A DNA stretch of 64,000 nucleotides from a plasmid. Under the pieces are notes generated by a model. That model was not told the origin of the DNA and searched no databases. It was given only the letters and a program-made list of their open reading frames with translations. The stretch lies in sequence record NZ_CP099764.1; one strand, written 5' to 3'. This document shows positions 10,844 to 60,415 of this stretch, piece after piece (position 1 is the first letter of the stretch; every line of letters starts with the position of its first letter). A program made the position numbers and the translations under genes.

Positions 10844-10993
10844 TTACTTCCGTGCTTCGTAGGCCAGAGTTACCTGCACCACTGTATTTCCCCTGTGAAT
10901 ATTCAGCTCACATAACCGTTCCCTGAATATCAGTAAAAAACACAACACCGTGGCGCACACGGCGAGCACCCCGATAAGGGCATATTTCGTCAT
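10844..10993 (-). CDS. srnB: Hok/Gef-family toxin (SrnB/PndA-type)
   Basis: MTKYALIGVLAVCATVLCFLLIFRERLCELNIHRGNTVVQVTLAYEARK, ~50-aa single-TM peptide essentially identical to SrnB/PndA as recalled. Confidence 0.8.
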   Translation of the reverse strand: MTKYALIGVLAVCATVLCFLLIFRERLCELNIHRGNTVVQVTLAYEARK

Positions 10994-11254
10994 AAACTTT
11001 GACCTCTCTGCAAGGAAGAGGCTACAATCAGTAGTGTTAAGGTACTTCATGCAGGCCTCACGAGTTAATGGATTAACAAGTGGGGTCTTCGCATTTCTGG
11101 TACCTGCGTCTTGCCTGAACCAGAAAGGCTCAGACACCCGCCGCGATAATACCACATTCCCTGTTACTGACCATTCCCTCCATTTCCCGCTTTTCACTAC
11201 AGAAACGCCAGGGGCGGGGAAAACTTGCTTTTTCCCGTCCCCGGGGTTGGACAA
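10844..11254 (-). CDS. overlapping regulatory reading frame of the srn/pnd locus (mok-equivalent, pndC/srnC-like)
   Basis: 136-aa frame overlapping and ending with the toxin ORF, as in hok/mok. Confidence 0.4.
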   Translation of the reverse strand: MSNPGDGKKQVFPAPGVSVVKSGKWREWSVTGNVVLSRRVSEPFWFRQDAGTRNAKTPLVNPLTREACMKYLNTTDCSLFLAERSKFMTKYALIGVLAVCATVLCFLLIFRERLCELNIHRGNTVVQVTLAYEARK

Positions 11255-15664: not shown

Positions 15665-18600
15665 TCAGTCTCCGCCCAGGGTTTTCTCTTTCTGCAGGTC
15701 ACGAACCATATCCCGCTCCATCTGCTGCAGTCGCTCCTGCAGCAGATTTTCCCGGGCAACCTCCCGGACCGCTTCCCGCACCCGTTGTGGTTCACGCAGT
15801 ACACTCTCCGGCAGCGCAGCTTCCCGTTCAGATATGGCAGACCTGTCACGCTCCAGCCCGGCAATATCCCTGACAGCCTGCTCTGTTTTGCCGTCCGGCA
15901 GGTCAGGTTTGTTCTCTGCCATTTTACGGACAATTTCATCCGCACGGCGTTCCGTTTCACGGCGGATGGCCTCTTCAGCCTGCCGCTGTGCCAGTACCTC
16001 TGCCGTGACCGGTTCGCCATTTCCGGCTCCCGGCTGAACGCTGTTGTCCGGGATATCCCCCCACACGCGACCACCGGTGATGGTACCGGGATTCCACGGA
16101 CGACCTTCACCGGCGATTCTTACCACCACACCGCTGTCAGGATTATCACGGGCAATCTGGACACCATCCTGCATATTATCAGCCAGCAGGCTCTCTCCGT
16201 TACGGCTGCCCTGCAGGGCCACGAACTGCGCATCCCCGCTGCCTTTCACCCGGCCTTCACCACTGAAGCCCCGCAGCCCGTTTCCGTCATCCGTGGTCAG
16301 CGGGTTCAGCCAGATACCAGCTGACTTGCCGTTACGGTCAAAAGCCGGCAGTGCCACATACGGCTGCGGATATTTGCGCCCGGGTGCAATAAACCGTGCA
16401 GGACTGTCTCCCCCGGCCAGCCCTGCCTGACGGAGAACGGCACGGCCGGCCACCACGTCCCGCAGCTCCCGCGCCGTACTGAACAGCCGCTCTGCATTCA
16501 TGACCTCCCGGTCCGATTTCGGCTCTAGCACATCGTGGGCAGTTCCTTTCTGTACGGCATTGTTAATGGCATCCGTCCAGCCCTGACGGTTATCGGTATA
16601 CACCTGCACATGCTGCTTCATACGCGACAGGGCCACGTAGGCTGACTCAAAACCGGCCATCTGTTTCCGGTTACCTTCCGTGCCTTCAAGCGCAATGGCA
16701 AAGGTTTCACTTGCCCCCTGCGCACCGTGGGCGGTGATGGCATAGGCCAGGTCAATATGTTGCTCTGCCCGCTCCTGACCGGGGCGAATCACCCGGGTCT
16801 GCTGTCCGTCCGACAGCGTGACACTGTCACCGGAAACCGCTGTCACCGTCCAGACGCTGTTGGCCACATAACCGCGCTCCCGGTCACTCTTCGTGAAGCG
16901 CATCCGGTCACCGGTTCCCACCCGGATGGTGTCCGGAGTGTACAGTGTGACGCCTTCAGCCACCGCCTCCCGGGGCGAAATCAGCCGCGTGTTACCTTCC
17001 GCATCCTGCAAGGTTATCAGCCCGTCATCCTTGCTGATACCGGCAATCCGGTGATACACATTATCCACCAGGGCAAGTGCGTCCCGATGTGTCTCCCAGG
17101 TGGAGAGACGACGCAACTCCCCGTCGCGTATATTCGCTGTGTTCAGGACAGGCGCCATGACCTGCTCTTTTCCCAGCTCACCGGCCTTTTCCCGTGCATC
17201 ATGAATCATGCTGTTCAGTACGCGCCGGTCCTCATTCAGATGCGTGACAATCAGCGTCTGCTCCCGTGCTTCCGGCGTCCTGCCGGTATAATCGCGGACA
17301 ATGGCTTCATACAGTGTCATGGGAATATCCGGAAAAGCCTCACCTTTCAGCATCGCCTTCTGCTGCGCTTCTGCCAGTTTCGCTTCCTGGCTGTGACTGA
17401 ACTCCGTCACGGAGTGCTCCGGTACCCATGCGCCCTCCTGACGTGGCACCTGAGACGGTTTCACACTCTCAAGCCCGGACAGTGCCCTTTCCACATCCCG
17501 GTTAATCAGGCTGTATACCGCCTCCCGCAGCTCCGGCGTCTGGCGCACAATCTCCTTCATGATGGCCACATCGGCAGCACTGCGCGTCTGCTGGAGACGG
17601 AAAGGCTGACCGGGCGCGATGGCCTGCAACTGGTCCGTGTCACCACTGGCCACGGCACGACCGCCACCGGCCGCAATCAGGGCGTATGCCCGTGCCATGT
17701 CGGTATTGCCCACCATAGAGCTCTCATCGAGCAGGAACAGCGTGTTGCTGAAATTCGGCGTTTCTCCGCTGCGCTGCAGCAGCTGCGTGTCATGCAGAAA
17801 GGACGCCAGCGTCTGTGCATCCACGCCGGCGCTGCGCATCTCACCGACCGCACGGTGCGTGGGCCCCAGCCCCACGACACGGGGACGTTCACTCTCCGGC
17901 AGCATGTTCACGGCTGACATCACCGCCCGGAACTGTGTGGTCTTACCCACACCGGCATAGCCCTGCACCACCGTGAAACGGTCGGACGTTTCCAGTATCA
18001 TGCGGGTAGCGGCACGCTGTCCTGATGTCAGTTTCTCCATGAGTTCGCCAGGTACTCTCTCCATCAGTGGCGTGACCGCCTCCTTACCTTCGAGAATATG
18101 GCGAAGAATGCTCTTTTCTGCCTCATACGACGCACGGGAAACCAGCAGGCCTGTGCCATAGCCTTTTGCCACATCCACATACAGTAAATCACCGCGTTTT
18201 ATCTGCGCATTGATTTCCCCTCCCAGTTCAGTAAAACTGGTTCCTTCTGCAGCAAACGACTTCGCCTCTGTCAGCAGGTCCACCATGCTGAAGGCCAGGT
18301 TTTTACTTTCCACCACAGGAAGCGCCAGATGAATAGCCTGCTGTGCCGGCGTGTGAAGCCCGGTTTTCTGCAGACTGATAGCGGTTTCCAGCAATGTCTC
18401 ACCGGCACGTGCCTTTATCTGCTCAGAAACCACCGTAAAGGAGGGATGGCGGGCAAGTTTTTCCGCAGTACGGGTTTCATCCAGTGAGGAATACAGCCGG
18501 ACATCACGACCGCTGCGGGCCAGACCGTTCAGGGTGGCGTTGTCCATTGCCATCTGTGTGACGGAGGCAAAAACCTTCGCACTGTCGCTGACGGAATGCC

Positions 18601-47189: not shown

Positions 47190-47520
47190 AGATTACCTTT
47201 TTTGAACATAAAATAAAGTTAATTTCGAAACACTAAAATTCATAATGCAAACAGGGACGCACCGCTAGCAGCGCCCCCGGCGGTATCCTATAAAAAAACA
47301 CACCGCGCCGCTAGCAGCACCCCTAATATAAGATGATGTTTTTTATGAAAATAGTCAGTACCACCCCTAAAAAGCGGTGTCGGCGCGGTGTTGTAGCTGC
47401 GCCGACACCGCTTTTTTAAATATCACAAAGAGAGCAAGAAGAACTAATTTGTCATAACTCTCTATTTATAAAGAAAAATCAGCAAAAACTTGTTTTTGCG
47501 TGGGGTGTGGTGCTTTTGGT
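47190..47520. promoter_or_regulatory. oriT: oriT with F-type nic site (GTGGGGTGT|GGTGCTTTT; nick between 47508 and 47509 on the + strand); TraM-binding direct repeats CCGCTAGCAGC at ~47258 and ~47300
   Basis: Sequence tttgcgtggggtgtggtgcttttggtggtgagaaccaccaacc matches the F nic region; repeated gc(a/c)ccgctagcagc(g/a)cccc motifs; location between traM and orf169. Confidence 0.8.
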
Positions 47521-48405: not shown

Positions 48406-49227
48406 TCATGACTTCCACTTTCTGAACTGTTCGGCAATCACCCATAACGCCTTGTTGATTCTTATATCACCATCAATACCTGTAATGGCTCTTGTCCTAG
48501 TATTTTTCCCGGAGGCACTTCGCCCCGATAATCCACCTTTTATCATATTCTCCTGAACCCGCTGCCAGGTTGTCCAGAGATCGTTCTGTTTGTCTTCCCG
48601 ACGACGGGGAGTAATTATCTGTTCAGGTGTCACTGGCGTTTTATTTTCATCTTCATACCTGACCATCAGTGCAGCTCTGCCAAATAAATGTTGCTCGTCA
48701 CTGTTAAGATGAATTTCTTTCATCGCCTCCATATTATCAGTGACCTTATCAAAGACACCGAGCACTTCATACGCTCCCTCGATAACCTGCCCGACAATAT
48801 CACCTTTATGTGGAGCGCGGATTTCGCCAAAATTATTTCCGCACACCAGGCCATTTGTGCAGACAAAACGAAAAATTCCGGGGATCATCTGATAACTGGA
48901 TGAACCATCATGTGAATTAAGCAGGATAATTTCAGGAACTTCCTGTCCGTTAATATGCCCTTCCCTGCGAAGACGTAACATATGTTTACTGTATTCGCGA
49001 CGTCCCAAATCACGAACCCGACTCTGATAGGCAAAGAATGGCTGGAAACCTTCATCACGTAACTTATTGATGATATTGATTGTTGGAATATACGTATAAT
49101 GTTCACTCCGGGACTCATGTTTATCACCGGAAAATACCGAAGGCACGAACTGCATTAATTCATCATCCGTTAAAGGACTTTCACGGCGGATGGAATTATA
49201 CCGACCAAAACGGGAAGCTAATCGCAT
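48406..49227 (-). CDS. DUF932-family leading-region protein (F orf273-like)
   Basis: 273 aa, the same length and position as orf273 of the F leading region. Confidence 0.7.
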   Translation of the reverse strand: MRLASRFGRYNSIRRESPLTDDELMQFVPSVFSGDKHESRSEHYTYIPTINIINKLRDEGFQPFFAYQSRVRDLGRREYSKHMLRLRREGHINGQEVPEIILLNSHDGSSSYQMIPGIFRFVCTNGLVCGNNFGEIRAPHKGDIVGQVIEGAYEVLGVFDKVTDNMEAMKEIHLNSDEQHLFGRAALMVRYEDENKTPVTPEQIITPRRREDKQNDLWTTWQRVQENMIKGGLSGRSASGKNTRTRAITGIDGDIRINKALWVIAEQFRKWKS

Positions 49228-49353
49228 AACAGCTACTCCTTTATGAAAGAATAAATTTAATAAAAAATTTTTCCGCTTAATATCATCCCCCCCCGATCTC
49301 TATTAACAAGATTGCAACAATCAGGAGGGATATTCATCACATCCGGTCAGCAG

Positions 49354-49640
49354 ATCGCCCGGATATCGAGGCCGGCACGCTTAATCTGACGCAGGAACTG
49401 TTTGAAGTGATCGGCTTCCGCAATGTTGATATGGCGGAACTGCTTATCCACACCCTGACTGAGCGCGTAGCTATAACTGAAGGCCATCTTTTCCGGGTGG
49501 CTTTTGCGATATTTTTTCAGCTCAGTCAGGCTGCTGAATTCCAGGACGTCCCACTCTTCCCCGGTGTTTTTTTCTTCCCGGCAACAAGAAGCGTGTACGA
49601 CGCGGTGTTAACGTGGATATTTCGGGTACTCATCCTGCTT
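49354..49640 (-). pseudogene. small leading-region gene interrupted by a frameshift at an A7 tract
   Basis: ATG at 49640 with GAGGAGA SD reads MSTRNIHVNTASYTLLVAGKKK then stops after 35 aa; a second frame continues ...EEWDVLEFSSLTELKKYRKSHPEKMAFSYSYALSQGVDKQFRHINIAEADHFKQFLRQIKRAGLDIRAIC to 49354. Confidence 0.4.
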
Positions 49641-49654
49641 TCTCCTCTATCTGG

Positions 49655-50283
49655 TTTTCAGCCCCCATCATCTGTTGAGTTTCGGGAGCCGCGGTTTTGA
49701 CGTTTTGCGGGGACCTGCCTTTTGTTCCCTCCGGTATTCACCATCACCTGTTTGAGAACCTTCGCCGCATGGGGCATCACTGCCACGGCCGGAAACGACT
49801 GTCCGGGGGCAGACCGCAAAAGTTTTTGCCTGCTTCTGGGCAAAAACTTTTGCGGGATGTGCATTTCACCCCTGGACTGGCGGAGACGGTTGTGGCTGTC
49901 TATGCCCCCGGCGACAGGGGCTTAAACAGGTGAATGGCACCGGACACAACAACGGGCAGGGACCCGCCGCAACGACGTGAAGCGCGGTTTGCGAAACGGC
50001 GTTGCGCCTTACATCCCGGCGGCCTTTTGCCGGGATGCCAGGAGCGCAGGCCACGGCGCGACAGAGGCGGCGCGACCGGAACGGTCGCTGCAAGCCCGGG
50101 GTTTTCACGCATCGGACCGTAGCGACAGCCCGAAACCGCGCCAGCGGGTTCGGCGGAGACTGGCAGGTGCGCCAGCAGCTGCCTGTCGGAGTCGGGCCTG
50201 ACGACCGGATGCCGCCAGGCAGCCGGGAGCCGAAGGTGCGCCGGCAGACAGGACAACACTGCAGTAGTCAGAATCAGAGCAGG
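49655..50283 (+). repeat. leading-region repeat copy A (Frpo/ssi-like element with long palindrome)
   Basis: ~630 bp near-identical to 56431-57063 and, in its 3' half, to 60050-60385; contains the inverted repeat ccgcaaaagtttttgcc...ggcaaaaacttttgcgg. Confidence 0.6.
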
Positions 50284-50553
50284 AAGAAAAAGAGAATAAT
50301 CACAGGGAAGGTGATGTGATTTCTGACAAGCCATAACCAGAGAAGGCGGGGGAAAAGAACGGGCGCCGCAGGCGCGCGTTCATCCCCGTTCCTGAAGGGA
50401 AACGACCTTCCTGAAGTCAGGTTGTTCATGCCCGTACAACATCAGCAAGGAGAAAGGGGCTACCGGCGAACCAGCAGCCCCTTTATAAAGGCGCTTCAGT
50501 AGTCAGACCAGCATCAGTCCTGAAAAGGCGGGCCTGCGCCCGCCTCCAGGTTG

Positions 50554-50712
50554 CTACTTACCGGATTCGTAAGCCATGAAAGCCGCCACCTCCCTGTGTC
50601 CGTCTCTGTAACGAATCTCGCACAGCGATTTTCGTGTCAGATAAGTGAATATCAACAGTGTGAGACACACGATCAACACACACCAGACAAGGGAACTTCG
50701 TGGTAGTTTCAT
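50554..50712 (-). CDS. hok: Hok toxin (FlmA-like)
   Basis: [52 protein letters not shown] matches Hok of R1/F as recalled. Confidence 0.85.
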
Positions 50713-50770
50713 GGCCTTCTTCTCCTTGCGCAAAGCGCGGTAAGAGGCTATCCTGATGTGGACTAGACAT
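50558..50770 (-). CDS. mok: Mok (modulator of killing) overlapping reading frame
   Basis: 70-aa frame [26 protein letters not shown]... overlapping hok. Confidence 0.6.
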
Positions 50771-50811
50771 AGGGATGCCTCGTGGTGTACTGACCCCAAA
50801 AAGTTGGACAG

Positions 50812-51663
50812 TTAAACACGAGGCATATAGGTCTGATTCCGATATTCAATTGGAGTCAGACCTTTTAATTTCAGGCTAATTCTTCTGCTGTTGTAGTATT
50901 CAATATATTCCGTAACAGCATCCTTCAGTTCGCTTATATTACTGAACTCATCAAGATAAAAACACTCCGACTTTAAGGTTCCAAAGAAACACTCCACCAC
51001 AGCATTATCCAGACAATTGCCTTTTCTGGACATGCTTTGTTTAATACCATGTTCTTTAAGGATATTTTGATATCTTCTCATACGATACTGCCATCCCTGG
51101 TCAGAGTGCAGAACAGGATGCTCGTGAGGATTAAGCTTTTTGAATGCCTGATCGAGCATATTCTCAACCATGTTCATCACTGGTCTTTCCGAAAGGCTGT
51201 AAGAAATAACTTCGTTGTTGAAGAGATCTATTACTGGAGACAAATACAGCTTGCGCCCATTGACTGCAAATTCAGTAACATCGGTAACCCACTTCTCGTT
51301 TGGCCGCGTAGCCTTGAAATCTCTTTGGAGAACATTAGGGGCGGTTTGCCCTACCTCTCCTCTGTAAGAGCGGTATCGCTTGACCTTAATCGCTGCTTTA
51401 AGTGAGAGGGTTCCCATCAGGCGCTGAACAGCTTTATGGTTAATCTGTTTCCCTTCTCGATGAAGAGACAGCGTTACCCTACGGTATCCGTATCGGCCTC
51501 TATTCTCGTGATAAATCTCACTAATACGCTTTTTAACGTCCGCATACTTGTCAGGCTTGCTGAGAGCCTTTAGATGATAATAAAACGTACTGCGCGGTAT
51601 CTCCGCAGCCCTGAGAAGCTCATCAAGAGGATAAAACTGCCTTAGCTCGTTGAGTACTTTCAC
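50812..51663 (-). CDS. insK: IS150 OrfB (DDE transposase/integrase domain)
   Basis: 283 aa; matches IS150 InsK as recalled. Confidence 0.9.
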
Positions 51664-52181
51664 TTTTTCGTGGGATGAGCTAAGGCTTTCAGCTTTTTTA
51701 GATACATAAGCCGCGTTTCAAGAAATCGAACTTGCCTTTCAAGATCCTCAATGCGTCGGTCTTTTGACAGCTCCAATGCTGATGCCGCTTTTTCTGGATC
51801 AACTGATATTGCAATGTTTCTTTTGGTGCCAATCTTGAGCGCGCGTAAACCAGCTTCTCCGCGCTCTTCATAGACCTTCAGCCACCTGGCTACAGAACCA
51901 CTACCAGCAAGCATAAAGTGAGCAGCAGCCTGATTAAGGGACATGTGCTGCTCGATCACAGCTTTCACGACCTTAATACGCAACTCTGGATCAGCACTAA
52001 CGCCTTTAGGTTTGGGAATTAAACCTTTTTCTCCATGTTTTTCATAGAGGGCAACCCATGTCCTGACCTGGGTTCGGGGGACACCAAAACGTGCCGAGAT
52101 GATCCTGTAACCATCATCAGTTGTGAAGTAGTGATTCACGACTTCAAGGCGCTTTTCAAAAGGGTATTTTGGCTTTGACAT
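51660..52181 (-). CDS. insJ: IS150 OrfA (HTH)
   Basis: 173 aa MSKPKYPFEKRLEVVNHYFTTDDGYRIISARFGVPRTQVRTW...; 4-nt overlap with orfB, typical of the IS3-family frameshift window. Confidence 0.9.
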   Translation of the reverse strand: MSKPKYPFEKRLEVVNHYFTTDDGYRIISARFGVPRTQVRTWVALYEKHGEKGLIPKPKGVSADPELRIKVVKAVIEQHMSLNQAAAHFMLAGSGSVARWLKVYEERGEAGLRALKIGTKRNIAISVDPEKAASALELSKDRRIEDLERQVRFLETRLMYLKKLKALAHPTKK

Positions 52182-52228
52182 ATTAGGGGCTATTCCATTT
52201 CATCGTCCAACAAAATGGGTGCAGTACA

Positions 52229-52365
52229 TAATGAAAATTAACTTACTACGGGGCTATCTTCTTTCTGCCACACAACACGGCAACAAACCACCTTCACGTC
52301 ATGAGGCAGAAAGCCTCAAGCGCCGGGCACATCATAGCCCATATACCTGCACGCTGACCACACTC
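52229..52365 (-). promoter_or_regulatory. displaced hok promoter and 5' mRNA leader (tac/ucb region), separated from mok/hok by IS150
   Basis: Minus-strand sequence ggcgcttgaggctttctgcctcatgacgtgaaggtggtttgttgccgtgttgtgtggcagaaagaagatagccccgtagtaagttaattttcatta matches the 5' end of hok mRNA as recalled, ending exactly at the IS150 junction. Confidence 0.6.
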
Positions 52366-52430
52366 ACTTTCCCTGAAAATAATCCGCTCATTCAGACCGT
52401 TCACGGGAAATCCGTGTGATTGTTGCCGCA

Positions 52431-53150
52431 TCACGCTGCCTCCCGGAGTTTGTTCGGCACCATCCACCGCTCCATCTCACGAACAGCATGACCGACCACC
52501 CTTGCCGCCATACCAGCCTCTGCGATGACCTGCCAGAATGGCATATCCTGCCACTGCCAGCGTTCCATTCCGGCCAGTGACGGAAAACGCTCGCCCCACT
52601 GCCAGAACAGGGTTTCCAGGTCATGCTCTGCCACCCGGTCACTCCAGCGTGCATGCCAGCTTCCGACTGTTTCCGGCGAATGGAATGCCAGTTCGATTTC
52701 AGCCTGAGCGACCAGCGCCTGGTACGCACGGGCTTTCTGCTCTGCCTCCCTCGCCTGCTGGCGGCTGTACTTCTGCATGACCAGCGCGGATTTATGGCGA
52801 CTGCGTTCCCTGACACGAAACCGCACCGACGGGAACAAGCGCTCTGCTGCATCACCGGGAAGGGGAAGGAGGCAGACCTCGCCCTGTGTTTCAATCAGCA
52901 CATCGATGGCATACAGCCACTGAAGACGGTTGCCGTGCAGTTCTTCTGCGGTCAGGGACGGCATGAAAAATCGCAGGTCAGACAGCGATATCCTGCGGCT
53001 TCCGTTCAGACAGCGGAAAAACGCCCCCGCATACGGATATTCAGCCAGCGTGTTACCCTGATGGCGGCGTTTTTCGGTCTCCGCCACCGCCCGCCATGCG
53101 GCCTGTTGCTCTGTGCTGAGAGGAACCAGTGCCTGTGAACGTGCGCTCAT
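52431..53150 (-). CDS. psiA: PsiA
   Basis: 239 aa immediately downstream of psiB with a 4-nt overlap; synteny with the F leading region. Confidence 0.8.
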
Positions 53151-53584
53151 GCCTGACCTCCTTCCGCCATCAGGATATGGATGATGTCACTGACGCTGTA
53201 CCCCTGCGCGTCCAGTGACGCTGCCAGTGCCAGTGAATGGCTGACGGCTTCCGGTGCAAACCGCCGCTGCACCTGAACCACCGCAAACGGCTCACCACCG
53301 GCATTCACCAGAACCAGCACCCAGACCTGAGAGACATCGCCCGGTGAACATAACGCCAGGTGAAAACGTTCGTGGGCAGGCGTGAAACGGACCTGGACGG
53401 GGAAAAAGCCGCCAAACTCGCTGCCGTACTCGCCGTTCATCGTCCAGTTATCCGGCACATCCAGCTCCCGCATCACGGCGTGAGTCAGTTCACGGCGTTC
53501 ATCACTTCCGGCAGCCCGGATATCTTCATATTCCTGTGCGTTCATGGTCTGCAGGACATTCAGGGTCAGTTCAGTTTTCATCAC
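53147..53584 (-). CDS. psiB: PsiB (plasmid SOS inhibition)
   Basis: 145 aa [66 protein letters not shown]... matches PsiB as recalled. Confidence 0.9.
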
Positions 53585-53635
53585 GGTATCTCCCTTGCTG
53601 CCGCCCCGTCTCCGGCGGGGCGGTGTGGTTTTTCA

Positions 53636-54259
53636 TCAGGCGGCATCAGCCAGGTTATCGGTGCGTTCAGTGGCATCCGTCTGTGGGCGTGGTGCACACA
53701 TCCAGCCAGGCACCCAGCGGTTGTCTTTCATGTGGAACTCTGCATGTTCAGCCGCATCGCCTTTCTTCATCTTCTCCGCGTCCCGTGCAGCACCGGACAG
53801 GCCGGCCTCATTCAGAGCTGCGATAATCTGCGGCTTTTTCAGGTGTCCGAAGAAGTTTGCTTTTGTCGGCTGCCACCAGTCGCGCATGTGGAATCCGATA
53901 GCGGTTTCCAGCGGGTCAAGCGGACTGCGTGACGAGTGACCACACTCGCGGGTCTGAACGCCGTGGATGCTGCACGCAGTGCAGAAACTGAGCAGGGATA
54001 ACAGCACCTCCTGGCTGAGTGACAGGAACGTCGTCATGTCCCGTGACCATCCCTCCGGTAACAGGGCTGCAAGACGGGCTTTTTCTGCCATCAGCGCCAT
54101 GAATGCGGCACCTTCCTTCCCCGATGGCGCATCGCTGGTCAGCGCATAATGCTCACATTCCAGACGAATTTTTGCGGGATTGCTGTACGCCCCGCTACCA
54201 AACACATTCAGGCAGAGCGTCCATGCCAGCAGTGCCAGAGATTTGTCCGGCTGTTGCAT
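53636..54259 (-). CDS. conserved leading-region protein of unknown function
   Basis: 207-aa ORF between the parB-like gene and psiB. Confidence 0.55.
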   Translation of the reverse strand: MQQPDKSLALLAWTLCLNVFGSGAYSNPAKIRLECEHYALTSDAPSGKEGAAFMALMAEKARLAALLPEGWSRDMTTFLSLSQEVLLSLLSFCTACSIHGVQTRECGHSSRSPLDPLETAIGFHMRDWWQPTKANFFGHLKKPQIIAALNEAGLSGAARDAEKMKKGDAAEHAEFHMKDNRWVPGWMCAPRPQTDATERTDNLADAA

Positions 54260-54268
54260 AAGCGCCGC

Positions 54269-55594
54269 CTAGACTGCCAGCGTGCGCTCTGAGGACATTT
54301 TCGTCAGCAGTGGCAGACTGATTTCCTCCACTGACGCTTTCTCCTGCACCTGTTCCGTGCGGTCACCATCGTCAGCCGCATCATCCTCACTGCGCAACTG
54401 CACACCACGCTGGACACACACATTACCGTAACGCCAGGACACCACCACACCGCTTCCGGCACGCATCTCCGGCGTCCACGCTCTGACCTTCGCTATGCAG
54501 CGCATCAGCTTCATTTCTGCTTCCAGCAGGTCGGATTCCTCACACTGGTTTTCCAGCGCGTCGTAACGTGCCATCAGTTCGTTCAGGCATTCTTCTTCCG
54601 CCTCCGTCAGCACCTCTTCCGGCTCCGGCAGACTGCGGTATGCCCGGGCATCTTCACGGCACTCACCGACAGGTTCCATGCGTCCGGCGCACCATCCCCA
54701 GCCTTCGGCTTCCCGAAGGAACTCTGCGACGGCCTGGAGTTTTTCCAGCAGGGCGGCATCGAGCGCAACACAGTCCACATAGCCACCCTCGTCGTCGCTG
54801 AACAAATCGGTGCGCAGTTCATCTGGCGAGAAGGCATCAGCCCCCACGAAGTGGAATTTACCGTTCCCCGCCACCGCCACTTCACTTTCGGTCACCAGAC
54901 GACGAATGGTCTGTACTTCCGGTTTTCCTCCCCATCCCGACTGACAGGCAGCTTCAAACACCTGCACCTGACGCGCGGTGTCGTTCTCCAGCGCCAGCGC
55001 CTGACAGTGTTCGGTGGTGATGCGGTCTTCTGCCAGCGCATCGAGGATGACAGGCGCAAGGTCTGCCAGTTTCAGCATTCGCTGAACGTGGCGGGGCGAA
55101 TAACCCAGCAAATCACCGATTTGTGCAGGTGTTTTGCCTTCCTGCGCCATTGCGCGGAAGCCGGCAATCTGTTCGGCAGGGTGCATATCCCGACGATGAC
55201 CGTTTTCAGTCATTGATGCGGCTGTCGCCAGCTCCTGCGGAATAATTTTCACACGGACAGGCCAGTCAGCCGGAATGATGTCACGCTCTGCCAGCATGTT
55301 GAGTGCTGCCAGTCGGCGACCACCTGCGGCGACACCGTAACGGTCACCTGGCAGGGCATGAACAACCAGATTCTGTAACAGGCCGACACCTTTAATGGAG
55401 TCCGCCAGTTCGCTGACGGACTCCGCAAAATACGGCACCGTGCGCACATTCAGCGGTGACTTAATCAGCGAGGCCAGCGGCACGCTCACTTCCTCCGTCT
55501 GCGCCAGCAGGGTAGACAGGACTGTTTCCTGCGTTTTTGCAGGTTTACGGCTGGATTTACGCTCCGTTTTTGCCTTAGACTCTGTAACTGACAT
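54269..55594 (-). CDS. ParB-like nuclease-domain protein of the leading region
   Basis: ParB/Srx N-terminal motif region (…VRTVPYFAESVSELADSIKGVGLLQNLVVH…GGRRL…) and large size; probable start at MSVTESKAK. Confidence 0.75.
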   Translation of the reverse strand: MSVTESKAKTERKSSRKPAKTQETVLSTLLAQTEEVSVPLASLIKSPLNVRTVPYFAESVSELADSIKGVGLLQNLVVHALPGDRYGVAAGGRRLAALNMLAERDIIPADWPVRVKIIPQELATAASMTENGHRRDMHPAEQIAGFRAMAQEGKTPAQIGDLLGYSPRHVQRMLKLADLAPVILDALAEDRITTEHCQALALENDTARQVQVFEAACQSGWGGKPEVQTIRRLVTESEVAVAGNGKFHFVGADAFSPDELRTDLFSDDEGGYVDCVALDAALLEKLQAVAEFLREAEGWGWCAGRMEPVGECREDARAYRSLPEPEEVLTEAEEECLNELMARYDALENQCEESDLLEAEMKLMRCIAKVRAWTPEMRAGSGVVVSWRYGNVCVQRGVQLRSEDDAADDGDRTEQVQEKASVEEISLPLLTKMSSERTLAV

Positions 55595-55659
55595 AGTTAG
55601 TACCTCCCAAAACGGTAATAATGATTGTCTGCCGGACGTGTCCCCGTCCGGCACCTCTC

Positions 55660-56408
<749 letters not shown>

Positions 56409-56430
56409 GATGTGCCTCCTTCTGTTGATG

Positions 56431-57125
56431 TTTTCAGCCCCCATCATCTTTTGAGTTTCGGGAGCCGCGGTTTTGACGTTTTGCGGGGACCTGCCTTTTG
56501 TTCCCTCCGGTATTCACCATCACCTTTTTGAGAACCTTCGCCGCAAGGGGCATCACTGCCACGGACGGAAACGACTGTCCGGGGGCAGACCGCAAAAGTT
56601 TTTGCCTGCTTTTGGGCAAAAACTTTTGCGGGATGTACATTTCACCCCTGGACTGGCGGAGACGGTTGTGGCTGTCTTTGCCCCCGGCGACAGGGGCTTA
56701 AACAGGTGAATGGCACCGGACAGAACAACGGGCAGGGACCCGCCGCAACGACGTGAAGCGCGGTTTGCGAAACGGCGTTGCCCCTTACATCCCGGCGGCC
56801 TTTTGCCGGGATGCCAGGAGCGCAGGCCACGGCGCGACAGAGGCGGCGCGACCGGAACGGTCGCTGCAAGCCCGGGGTTTTCACGCATCGGACCGTAGCG
56901 ACAGCCCGAAACCGCGCCAGCGGGTTCGGCGGAGACTGGCAGGTGCGCCAGCAGCTGCCTGTCGGAGTCGGGCCTGACGACCGGATGCCGCCAGGCAGCC
57001 GGGAGCCGAAGGTGCGCCCGGCAGACAGGACAACACTGCAGTAGTCAGAATCAGAGCAGCAGGAAAAAGAAGAACAGTAGCAGTAGCAGTAGCAGTAGCA
57101 GTAGCAGGAACAACAACATCATCAG
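56431..57125 (+). repeat. leading-region repeat copy B (Frpo/ssi-like), immediately upstream of ssb; carries a (CAGTAG)5 microsatellite at 57068-57100
   Basis: Near-identical to copy A over ~630 bp; the same long palindrome at ~56583-56630. Confidence 0.6.
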
Positions 57126-57285
57126 TAACAGACAAATGACAGGCATGAAGAAACAGAAGCCCCCATCAGAACGTCCGCGTAATGAAAGGGGCGGCGCGTG
57201 AGCGCGGCCCCTTTCAGCGCCACCGGCGCGCGTTTTTTCCCGGCGCGGGCTGACAGGCATTTATCCTCCCGCCGGCCCTGTGTCA

Positions 57286-57849
57286 TCAGGCACGCAGACG
57301 AATAATCATCGTCGGGACATCGGTATAAGCAAACGTGCCGCGCGGCAGCTCCTCGCGGACGTCAGAAAACGGTAACAGCTTCTCCTGCTGGCGTGGTCCG
57401 TTGAGACAGACGGCGACCAGCACTCCACCCGGACGCAACAGGGAAAAGGCCCGCAGGATATGCCGGATATCCTGCCCGTGGCTGAACGGCGGATTCATGA
57501 TAACCCGGCTGTAATACTGCACTGGCTGCCATTCCATGAAGTCGCCACACTGAACCCTGACACCGTTAAAATTTTCCCGCAGATACCGGACCAGCCCGCT
57601 GTTGATTTCCACCGCATCACACATGGCCCCCGGCGCGGTATCCCGAATCGCCCGCAGTATGGCCCCGGTGCCGGCAGAGGGTTCCAGAATGTGATCACGG
57701 TTGCTGATCTCCGCCAGCATCACCAGGCGATCACAGACCGGGGCAGGAGTCACAAAAAGCTGAGATTCAGCCCGGATTTCAGCAACCGGCGCGGCGTTAT
57801 CCAGCCTTGCGCGCATCAGCCGGATACGTTCTCTTAACTGACTGTGCAT
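57286..57849 (-). CDS. orphan SAM-dependent DNA methyltransferase (N6-adenine type, NPPF motif)
   Basis: 187 aa with SAM-binding EPSAGTGAI and catalytic IMNPPF motifs. Confidence 0.75.
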   Translation of the reverse strand: MHSQLRERIRLMRARLDNAAPVAEIRAESQLFVTPAPVCDRLVMLAEISNRDHILEPSAGTGAILRAIRDTAPGAMCDAVEINSGLVRYLRENFNGVRVQCGDFMEWQPVQYYSRVIMNPPFSHGQDIRHILRAFSLLRPGGVLVAVCLNGPRQQEKLLPFSDVREELPRGTFAYTDVPTMIIRLRA

Positions 57850-57896
57850 ATCATTATCTCCGTCATCCCCCGGGGATTTTCCCGGGGGGATATACC

Positions 57897-59258
57897 TTAT
57901 TTCTGTGGGATTTCCGTGATTTTCATGTCGGTGATATACACATTCACCAGGCGGAAATTATTGTCCATTGTGCGGCGGTACCGGTATGCCCCGTGGTCTT
58001 CTGCTTCTGCCACACTGCGCACGGCCTTACAGTCCCGGGGCAGGGCGGCCCACTGTGCCTTTGTCATTTCCCGGAAACCTTCCCCCGGATAGTTGACTAC
58101 CGGCGGACGCTTCGCGGCCTGACTAGCGACGGCAGCCTCTTCTGCCGATGGTGCTTTGTAGTCCGTGATGCGATCGGGCGTCACTTTCATCGTGCCGCTG
58201 TACCCGAGAAAACTGTAATTTGGCGTTGTGACTGAACTCACCGCCCCGTTGCTTTTGTTCACACGGATGATGGTCAGCCACTCGCCCCGGCTGAAAACCT
58301 GTCCGCCCGGCTCAAAATCCTGTGTCCGGGTAACCACGCCGCCGCTTTCGTCCAGCATGGCACGCTCATAGATCAGGCGGTTCTGATAGTGGTTAACCCA
58401 GCGTTGTTGATGCTGAATCTGCCGTTCATGACAGCGGATCGCAATTTCGCGGGCCTGCTCCGTGGTGATGATGTCATCATCCAGGGCCGACCATAACGAT
58501 CGACTTCCTTCATACTGGCTTTTTTCTGCCGGGCGCGGATACGTATCCAGCGGGAAACAGGCGCTGATATGGTCATGACTGCTGATGAGTTTTGCCATAT
58601 TCAGATCCAGCGATTCAGCCCGCCACATCGTCAGATATTTCTGCGACTGCGCGATGGTCTTTTCAGCCTTGCGCAAATCAGCTTCGATTTTTTTGATACG
58701 ACGCCAGCGAACGTCCGGACGTTCTTTATACTTCGCGTGAAGCAGTGCCGACCGCGCCCGCTCTTCCCAGTATTCCGCACGTTCAAAGAGCATCACGGCT
58801 CGTTTCATGCCGTTTTCAATACGCTGCGCATCACGACGGGCGCGGCGTTCGCTGTGATGCCCCACAAGAATGGGCTGACCGGGCGGGATCATCGCGGCCA
58901 GTCTTTCCACTTCATCAAGTGCCTGTGCGGATTCACTGGCCCGCTTTCCGCTGTATCCGGTAAACCGCTCCGCCCGTGCTTCCTGACGTTCAGCGAGCGT
59001 GCTGTCTTCATCCTCAATCTCTCCGGCAAGTGAGAGGAGCACGTCTTCCCGGCCCGGTGTCCATGCTGGCGCGACAAACAGCGCCTGTTTTGGTGCCCAG
59101 CGGAAACCGGCATCATGCACTTTTTTATACGTCTCCGAGTCAAGACGTGACACGGCATACAGGCGCAGTTTGTTGTCATCCGGTGAGTAGGTCGCGCGGT
59201 ACATCTGCACAGGGCTGGCGGCTTCCGGGGCGGTCATGGTGATTGCTGCTAATGTCAT
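57897..59258 (-). CDS. large conserved leading-region protein of unknown function (charged/coiled-coil middle region)
   Basis: 453-aa ORF with good coding statistics. Confidence 0.6.
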   Translation of the reverse strand: MTLAAITMTAPEAASPVQMYRATYSPDDNKLRLYAVSRLDSETYKKVHDAGFRWAPKQALFVAPAWTPGREDVLLSLAGEIEDEDSTLAERQEARAERFTGYSGKRASESAQALDEVERLAAMIPPGQPILVGHHSERRARRDAQRIENGMKRAVMLFERAEYWEERARSALLHAKYKERPDVRWRRIKKIEADLRKAEKTIAQSQKYLTMWRAESLDLNMAKLISSHDHISACFPLDTYPRPAEKSQYEGSRSLWSALDDDIITTEQAREIAIRCHERQIQHQQRWVNHYQNRLIYERAMLDESGGVVTRTQDFEPGGQVFSRGEWLTIIRVNKSNGAVSSVTTPNYSFLGYSGTMKVTPDRITDYKAPSAEEAAVASQAAKRPPVVNYPGEGFREMTKAQWAALPRDCKAVRSVAEAEDHGAYRYRRTMDNNFRLVNVYITDMKITEIPQK

Positions 59259-59540: not shown

Positions 59541-59770
59541 AATTTAGCCTCTTATGACGTTAATTAATGAAACCGTAAAGACTGTTCGTGCAGTCTCTGC
59601 GGTGTGGATTAAGCAGGTCCCTGACCTGCTTTTTTCATATCTGCGTCTGACGTTCTCCGGTGTTTTCCTCCTTCTGTTCCTGCGTTCTCATTACCTGCCA
59701 GCCGGATGACTGACAGAACACATAAATGCGTATTGCCGGAGCCTGAAATAAATCCTGATTTTTAAAGAAC

Positions 59771-60415
59771 ATCACCCGTTGAGTTTCGGGAGCCGCGGTT
59801 TTGACGTTTCGCGGGAACCTGCTGCTGTATTCCCTGTGGTATGAACTTCACCCGTTTGAGAACCTTCGCCGCAAGGGGCATCACTGCCACGGCCTGACGC
59901 ACCTGTCCTGGGCAGAACGCAAAATTTTTTACCGGGTTTTGGGTAAAAAATTTTGTGGGCTGTTCATTTACCCTGGACAGTCAGTGCGGCAGGTTGTGGC
60001 TGTATCAGCCCCCGGCGACAGGGACTCATACGGGTGTGTAGCACCGGCAGGCAATGAGCAGGGACCCGCCGCAACGACGGAGAGCGCGTGCGCGAAACGG
60101 CGTTGCCCCTTACATCCCGGCGGCCTTTTGCCGGGATGTCGGGAGCGCAGGCCACGGCGCGACAGAGGCGGCGCGACCGGAACGGTCGCTGCAAGCCCGG
60201 GGTTTTCACGCATCGGACCGTAGCGACAGCCCGAAACCGCGCCAGCGGGTTCGGCGGAGACTGGCGGGTGCGCCAGCAGCTGCCTGTCGGAGTCGGGCCT
60301 GACGACCGGATGCCGCCAGGCAGCCGGGAGCCGAAGGTGCGCCCGGCAGACAGAACAACACTGCAGTAGTCAGAATCAGAGCAGCAGATAAAGGAACAAC
60401 AACATCAGGAACAGT
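59771..60415 (+). repeat. leading-region repeat copy C (Frpo/ssi-like; 5' half diverged, 3' half near-identical to A and B)
   Basis: Shares gttgagtttcgggagccgcggttttgacgtt... and the 3' ~330 bp; the palindrome arm is diverged (ccgggttttgggtaaaaaattttgtggg). Confidence 0.55.

Follow-up and report, generated by a model that had tools for sequence, protein, structure and literature searches.

A natural IS150 insertion in the Sok hairpin splits both genes of a hok/sok locus on an IncF plasmid

The plasmid stretch analysed here (64,000 nucleotides of sequence record NZ_CP099764.1, referred to as the window) carries a hok/sok killer locus that is interrupted by a complete IS150 element, and this insertion splits both genes of the module. 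The hok and mok frames are left without their promoter, tac and ucb elements, and sok is left without its hairpin and terminator. Taken as a whole, the explanation that we regard as probable is that an IncF flmA-type hok/sok locus was split by IS150 within the Sok hairpin, that the present allele derives from a widespread insertion allele (referred to as allele E) through a loss of 7 bp, and that the killer is silent. Insertion of IS150 into hok/sok is a common and already recognised disabling route, and the locus is ordinary in kind. Its only unusual detail is the missing target duplication, which is explained by the later 7-bp loss.

Both protein-coding frames of the locus were found to be intact, as an earlier note on this DNA had claimed. 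The Hok ORF (52 aa; 50554-50712, minus strand) matches Pfam HOK_GEF with 76.5 bits (cut-off 22), and the overlapping Mok ORF (70 aa; 50558-50770, minus strand) matches DUF5431 (Mok) with 140 bits over its full length (positions 1-70 of 70); in hok/sok systems, translation of hok is coupled to a leader frame of this kind. Because the neighbouring genes include psiA, psiB, ssb, the tra operon, FinP/traJ and CopA, the locus can be placed in the leading region of an IncF conjugative plasmid. A second Hok-family locus, of the srnB type (10844-11139, minus strand), had been proposed to be intact as well, and it indeed yielded a full-length match to Rfam RF01794 (hok leader) at 10983-11139 (99 bits). 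Related plasmids carry ccdAB and vapBC, and the plasmid's own srnB locus is still present.

The hok mRNA leader of the interrupted locus is organised differently from that of the srnB-type locus. RF01794 gave two half-matches (52325-52229 and 50785-50710) that flank IS150, and instead of a contiguous 5′ leader that holds tac, ucb and the mok Shine-Dalgarno sequence (SD) behind its own promoter, the window contains a leader that is cut at nt 96/101. Position 1 of the hok mRNA was set at the G of GGCGCTT, a numbering that reproduces the published positions G4, C5, T6, G105 and A106 (PMC9841398). The –10 element of the hok promoter ends 7 nt before this +1 (52324), and the promoter now lies 1.5 kb upstream of mok and hok. 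The displacement by 1.44 kb of the promoter and the 5′ ~100 nt of the hok mRNA, which the earlier note had described, was thus mapped to the first 96 nt of the transcript, including tac and ucb. Weak Rfam matches to MIR8622, mir-15 and Betaproteobacteria-1 fell far under their gathering scores and were ignored. The coordinates of all features are given in the table.

Table. Features of the interrupted hok/sok locus and of its IS150, in window coordinates
Feature	Position	Strand	Remarks
hok mRNA nt 101-~398	50488..50785	-	mok SD, mok, hok and 3′ UTR with fbi; by mapping to the intact locus; second half of RF01794
fbi	50490-50499	-	in the hok 3′ UTR
hok start codon	ATG at 50712	-	
mok start codon	ATG at 50770	-	
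sok promoter and Sok nt 1-26	50726..50785	+	–35 TTGCGC (50726-31), –10 TATCCT (50749-54); reads into the IRR end of IS150
Junction inverted repeat	50775..50826	.	arms 50775-95 and 50806-26; strongest inverted repeat in 50650-52400
mok SD	50778-50781	-	hok mRNA nt 105-108
IS150, complete	50786..52228	-	1443 bp; IS3 family, IS150 group; transposase genes co-directional with hok
IS150 IRR	50786-50807		begins TGTACTGACCCC
insB (OrfB)	50812..51663	-	DDE integrase core; Pfam rve, 101.7 bits
Terminator-like hairpin	50829..50863	+	15 bp followed by TTTTAATTT; inside IS150
insA (OrfA)	51660..52181	-	173 aa; HTH DNA-binding; Pfam HTH_28, 81.5 bits
A6G frameshift motif AAAAAAG	51693-51699	-	IS150 nt 530; –1 frameshift giving the InsAB fusion
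IS150 IRL	52207-52228		begins TGTACTGCACCC...; element ends ...GGGTGCAGTACA at 52228
hok mRNA nt 1-96	52229..52324	-	tac element, metastable hairpins, ucb/anti-SD; identical to intact pAPEC-1; first half of RF01794
Orphaned 3′ part of sok, Sok nt ~31-66	52229..52264	+	3′ arm of the hairpin and U-tail; by fold and coordinate mapping
hok promoter	52331..52360	-	–35 TGGTCA, 18-nt spacer, –10 TATGAT; by consensus scan

The insertion point was defined by aligning the flanks of IS150 to an intact locus, a comparison that the earlier note had asked for. In the intact locus of pAPEC-1 the sequence runs ...CCTCGTGG-TGGT-TAATGAAAA..., and since both flanks of the window are contiguous there with only TGGT between them, the 1.44 kb present in the window is an insertion; a native 1.4-kb spacer was not seen in the intact locus. 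Intact plasmids likewise read CCTCGTGG-TGGT-TAATG across the site, and when the joined flanks were compared to PLSDB, thousands of contiguous loci were retrieved whose sole difference was the four extra bases, the hok/mok flanks being identical to intact loci except for this 4-bp gap. IS150 consequently sits between nt 96 and 101 of the hok mRNA, 4 nt upstream of the mok SD, and nt 97-100 of the native transcript (ACCA) are absent from the window. The junction therefore lacks four native bases, and the bases that border the element (TGG and TAA) do not form a duplication, which agrees with the earlier reading that no clean 3-bp duplication is visible.

The inserted element itself is a canonical IS150. 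It is identical to the copy of E. coli K-12 MG1655 at 1443 of 1443 positions, its ends lie exactly at 50786 and 52228, as had been noted before, and it is the only IS150 copy in the window. Its termini are imperfect inverted repeats with a TG start and a CA end, and it has the two overlapping ORFs (HTH OrfA and DDE OrfB) and the –1 frameshift motif of the IS150 group. Moreover, an IS150 annotation is present in hundreds of matching database records. A target duplication of 3-4 bp is lacking in the window but present in the sister alleles described below; its absence is secondary and no argument against assignment to IS150.

With regard to the antitoxin, we take the sok promoter and start (~50760) to be those known for hok/sok of R1, as transferred to the geometry of this locus with an accuracy of ~2 nt. 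The intact Sok RNA (~65 nt) is predicted to fold into a free 5′ tail, a hairpin spanning nt 14-61 with a GAAA loop at nt 35-38, and a U-tail (z = –6.1). The element is inserted behind Sok nt 26, which belongs to the 5′ arm of this only hairpin, Sok nt 27-30 are deleted, and the Sok 3′ end comes to lie at ~52264. The earlier note had put the insertion near the Sok 3′ end or terminator, and in this respect it was mistaken, as that end is found on the other side of IS150, ~36 nt from the element. Because the element instead lies after nt 26 and within the 5′ arm of the hairpin, the antitoxin gene too is disrupted, and the locus has to be read differently in functional terms. The window thus holds no intact cis-encoded antisense Sok that combines promoter, 5′ tail, hairpin and terminator.

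IS150 has entered hok/sok loci repeatedly. In PLSDB, ~1062 records have IS150 joined to a hok/sok locus in the same orientation as in the window, and at least seven independent insertions could be recognised, six of which fall within ~13 bp at the apex of the Sok hairpin. These alleles were told apart by junction-specific queries. Allele A, present on many ST131-type plasmids, is located at hok nt 3-6 with a clean AGCG duplication. Alleles B to G share the ~13-bp target GTGG(T)GGTTAATGAAAA at the hairpin apex, and all have clean duplications: TAA in allele B, GAA in allele C, TTA in allele D, and TGG in allele E (CCTCG TGG-IS150-TGG TGGTTAATG), with alleles F (duplication GGT) and G being inserted into variant loci in truly opposite orientation. 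A query with the inverted IS retrieved seven records, five of which proved to be allele C rearranged by IS26 and the remaining two alleles F and G; given these two genuine opposite-orientation insertions, a strict orientation rule was rejected. A whole-locus megablast appeared to return hundreds of alleles identical to that of the window, a result that was rejected because the matches were allele A, in which separate pieces had been joined into a 100% match. A 100-bp query of the left junction was uninformative, separate pieces being joined in the same manner.

Beyond plasmids, experimental evolution of E. coli B yielded IS150 insertions in the leader of hokC, at positions 16,972 and 16,989 (PMC5419217). 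Alignment of hokC to the leader of the window places both positions in the homologous hairpin, shortly before the mok SD. The hokB and hokE sites of IS150 listed in the table of the same paper were dropped, as their coordinates correspond to chaB and cusA in NC_012967.1. In a large survey, hok/sok has been reported as a hotspot for mobile-element insertion (bioRxiv 10.1101/527788).

The sister alleles also clarify why the window has no target duplication. On its left side the window has exactly the junction of allele E, an allele seen in up to 279 records, and on its right side exactly the junction of allele B. The closest backbone, NZ_CP062867.1, carries allele E and is 99.9% identical over 16 kb; from 49180 to 58000 its sole difference from the window consists of 7 bp (TGGTGGT), which are absent here at 52228/52229, beside the IRL. 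As the closest relatives have a clean TGG duplication and differ by these 7 bp only, the missing duplication is a secondary trait, and by sequence comparison the window allele is an allele E from which the right-hand TGG and four native bases beside the IRL were subsequently removed. The earlier suggestion that a small deletion had accompanied the insertion was therefore right in that a few bases (four of them native) have been lost, but not in its timing, since the relatives retain the duplication.

The TGG and TAA flanks and the four missing native bp would also be expected if IS150 had, in one step, inserted without a duplication and removed 4 bp at once, and duplication-less IS movements have indeed been proposed (PMC11708052). 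However, such an independent event would have had to recreate the left junction of allele E base for base, a junction shared by up to 279 records, and to do so on a backbone whose closest relatives carry allele E and differ by 7 bp only, which renders it extremely improbable. The exact correspondence of the left junction to allele E and of the right junction to allele B might alternatively point to an inter-plasmid recombinant with a crossover inside the shared IS150, an element that is identical in many allele-E plasmids and some allele-B plasmids. The right flank speaks against this, as the 5.7 kb to the right of IS150 are identical to the allele-E relative, whereas in the allele-B plasmid CP088650.1 this flank deviates from the window at many positions and IS150 at four sites. 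A second crossover within ~200 bp of the IS would hence be needed, and among the records examined no allele-B plasmid had a right flank closer to the window than that of the allele-E relatives. We consider such recombination very improbable.

For the later loss of 7 bp from allele E, two routes can be envisaged. In the first, a second IS150 would have inserted in the same orientation at the TAA hotspot 7 bp away, after which the two copies would have recombined. This route would give the observed junction exactly and would account for its coincidence with allele B; the tandem intermediate that it predicts (IS150-TGGTGGTTAA-IS150) was found in 0 PLSDB records. In the second, a plain IS-adjacent deletion would have removed the 7 bp, with ~3 out of 20 short deletion lengths reaching a known junction by chance. 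Target duplications are often lost via either IS-IS recombination or adjacent deletion (PMC11708052). In PLSDB and the complete RefSeq E. coli genomes, the exact junction of the window occurs in one other record, pYLMB31a, which stems from poultry in Cuba. The backbone of this plasmid differs from that of the window (98.5% identity), and its only difference from its own allele-E relative is the same 7 bp, indicating either that the 7-bp loss happened more than once or that allele-E plasmids exchanged a short patch.

With both genes split, the killer locus is most likely silenced, as judged from the viability of its carriers and from RNA folding. A single chromosomal copy of hok is enough to kill the cell when Sok is lacking, and Sok RNAs encoded on the chromosome do not prevent this (PMC9841398). 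Yet ~1000 plasmids carry a split sok next to an intact hok ORF, so the insertion would have to silence hok as well. Three features would contribute to this silencing. The promoter is displaced, being 1.5 kb from mok and hok, the tac stem for translation activation is gone from the mok/hok transcript, and the native ucb/tac switch can no longer form. Single tac mutations are known to abolish Hok translation, tac being needed to open the mok SD (PMC9841398). In addition, any transcript that reads through is predicted to have its mok SD trapped in a 10-bp stem formed with IS150. Specifically, the stem joins the flank sequence ATGCCTCGTG (50775-84), complementary to the mok SD region, to CACGAGGCAT (50816-25) of IS150, and in the sense RNA both the MFE and the centroid folds predict a perfect 10-bp stem over the mok SD (z = –3.0 to –3.4).

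The same inverted repeat gives a predicted Sok′-IS150 stem in the antisense RNA, and the terminator-like hairpin inside IS150 would end a chimeric Sok′-IS150 transcript of ~110 nt. On the hok strand no intrinsic terminator was found inside IS150, so read-through from Phok or from the IS150 promoter into mok and hok is possible. Moreover, the hok and mok ORFs have undergone no decay, which would fit either a recent insertion or continued function. These features might together amount to a rewired but working toxin-antitoxin system, in which hok would be expressed by such read-through and the chimeric RNA would repress mok. The sok promoter is intact, as are Sok nt 1-26 with their complementarity to the SD and start codon of mok, and the chimeric RNA (50760-50875) is predicted to fold with a ~14-nt free 5′ tail like that of native Sok and to end in the 15-bp hairpin with its U-rich tail (z = –6.2); the undamaged ORFs and the lack of a detected terminator on the hok strand would agree with this as well. 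However, opening of the mok SD requires the tac element (PMC9841398), which now lies at a distance of 1.5 kb; this SD is moreover predicted to be locked in a stem, and alleles F and G, which occupy the same hairpin in opposite orientation, have no such arrangement of hairpin and terminator. Rewiring thus appears unlikely, and silencing remains our preferred reading of the locus.

The recurrent hits raise a further and rather doubtful proposition, namely that IS150 may prefer the apex of the Sok/hok-leader hairpin, in a structure- or sequence-directed manner, and may at the same time safely disarm the module, its common orientation providing a perfect IRR-proximal anti-SD for mok and a hairpin terminator for the truncated Sok′. 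If this were true, a cell could live through an insertion that, without these features, would set off killing by Hok, and the combination of apex preference and safe disarming would explain both the repeated insertions within ~13 bp and the 1062 versus ~2 plasmid records per orientation. We make no claim of homology-guided targeting through the 10-mer common to the mok SD flank and IS150, as shuffle tests were non-significant when the flank was compared to the whole IS (142 of 300 shuffles reached the score) and marginal when it was compared to the terminal 60 nt (51 of 1000 shuffles).

These findings bear on how such loci are annotated, because pipelines list a 'Hok family toxin' and surveys count an addiction system where, in this and ~1000 other plasmids, the module is split and probably inactive. 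The clustered IS150 hits in plasmids, the K-12 chromosome and evolution experiments mark a natural insertion hotspot at an RNA-regulatory hairpin, which could be used for studying target choice by IS150 and cell survival after loss of an antitoxin. The duplication-less junction, in turn, adds to the record one modest instance in which a target duplication was lost secondarily, on two different backbones.

In comparison with known systems, the locus belongs with hok/sok (parB) of R1 and flmA/flmB of F, type I toxin-antitoxin modules that act in post-segregational killing. It has the same Hok and Mok ORFs, and its leader, promoters, tac, ucb, mok SD, fbi and Sok hairpin are of the same sequence; outside the insertion point it is identical to intact IncF loci such as that of pAPEC-1. 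Unlike in R1, however, 1443 bp of IS150 interrupt the leader at nt 96/101, 4 nt are lost and sok is split, so that the published regulatory folding of R1 is no longer attainable in its described form. Plasmids with allele E (for example NZ_CP062867.1, NZ_CP024860.1 and pSH696_117 of S. Heidelberg) share with the window the same IS150, its orientation and left junction, and a backbone identity of 99.9%, but the window is without the TGGTGGT beside the IRL and accordingly has no duplication and four native bases fewer.

Two chromosomal cases offer parallels for the element itself. In K-12, an example of chromosomal hok loci being inactivated by IS elements, the genome's single IS150, of the same sequence, splits the hok-family locus hokA/sokA, also without a visible duplication, and leaves an annotated sokA remnant and a mokA pseudogene. 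This case differs from the window in being chromosomal, in the opposite orientation of the IS and in the position of the latter inside mokA, closer to hokA. The hokC insertions of E. coli B involve the same element and the homologous hairpin upstream of the mok SD, and were interpreted by their authors as inactivation of a dispensable toxin-antitoxin system (PMC5419217). Those insertions are chromosomal and arose de novo in the laboratory, whereas the locus described here is natural, plasmid-borne and widely disseminated.

The IS150 junction lacking a target duplication was found on two different backbones of allele E, the allele in which IS150 in hok/sok is flanked by a TGG duplication (window 50786-52228, compared with pYLMB31a, L011, and the allele-E locus L008). 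On both the window and the pYLMB31a backbone, the 7-bp loss beside the left inverted repeat (IRL) was the sole difference from the respective relative, and the shared junction could reflect either recurrence or short-patch transfer. Elsewhere in the window, 12 SNPs were clustered within 175 bp (47278-47451) relative to the otherwise near-identical NZ_CP062867.1, which suggests, from the sequence comparison, a recombination patch. The leading region also carried three copies of a ~640-bp repeat (see table), and a small cluster of leading-region genes was located downstream of each of them (3/3).

Features located in the window in and around the interrupted hok/sok locus
Feature	Window coordinates	Strand	Description
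15-bp hairpin, then TTTTAATTT	50829-50863	+	inside IS150, reading inward from the right inverted repeat (IRR)
66-aa ORF	52219-52419	+	starts within the IS150 IRL, then runs antisense through the hok leader
~640-bp repeat, three copies	49654-50296, 56430-57074, 59770-60401		leading region; 88-97% identity (blast)

The hairpin inside IS150 would end transcripts coming into the element from outside, in this case from the sok promoter. Next to it, the sequence flanking the Shine-Dalgarno (SD) of mok and the IRR-proximal part of IS150 formed an inverted repeat (50775-50826; 10 bp perfect, 81% over 21 nt), of which the IS150 arm encodes the final insB codons (MPRV). In the sense RNA, the two arms are predicted to pair and thereby sequester the mok SD. 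The 10-mer common to the mok-SD flank and IS150 was only marginally unusual when tested against the IS ends, its score being reached in 51 of 1000 shuffles, and the match was not significant against the whole IS.

With regard to annotation, equivalents of the 66-aa ORF were labelled 'hypothetical protein', 'protein sok' or 'sok protein' in public records; since Sok is an RNA, this annotation is probably artefactual. Rfam model RF01794, titled 'sok antitoxin', matched the hok-sense strand from the leader to the hok ATG, both at 10983-11139 and at 52152-52325 (-), and yielded no match to the antisense Sok strand at these loci. The Hok toxin CDS in public annotation (RefSeq L001, L002 and others) spanned 126 nt (41 aa), versus 52 aa for the ATG-initiated ORF (window 50554-50712).

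IS150 insertions have also been listed at the chromosomal sites trg/mokB (1,272,468) and insA-7/hokE (582,237) (PMC5419217, table). In the REL606 genome (NC_012967.1; L018, L019), these coordinates fell in chaB and cusA, respectively, and the rows or the coordinate system of that table appear to be shifted. In K-12 MG1655, the IS150 copy at hokA/sokA (L010, 3720633-3722075) likewise lacked a target duplication, with GTT and TAC as flanks, and its orientation relative to hok was opposite to that in the window.
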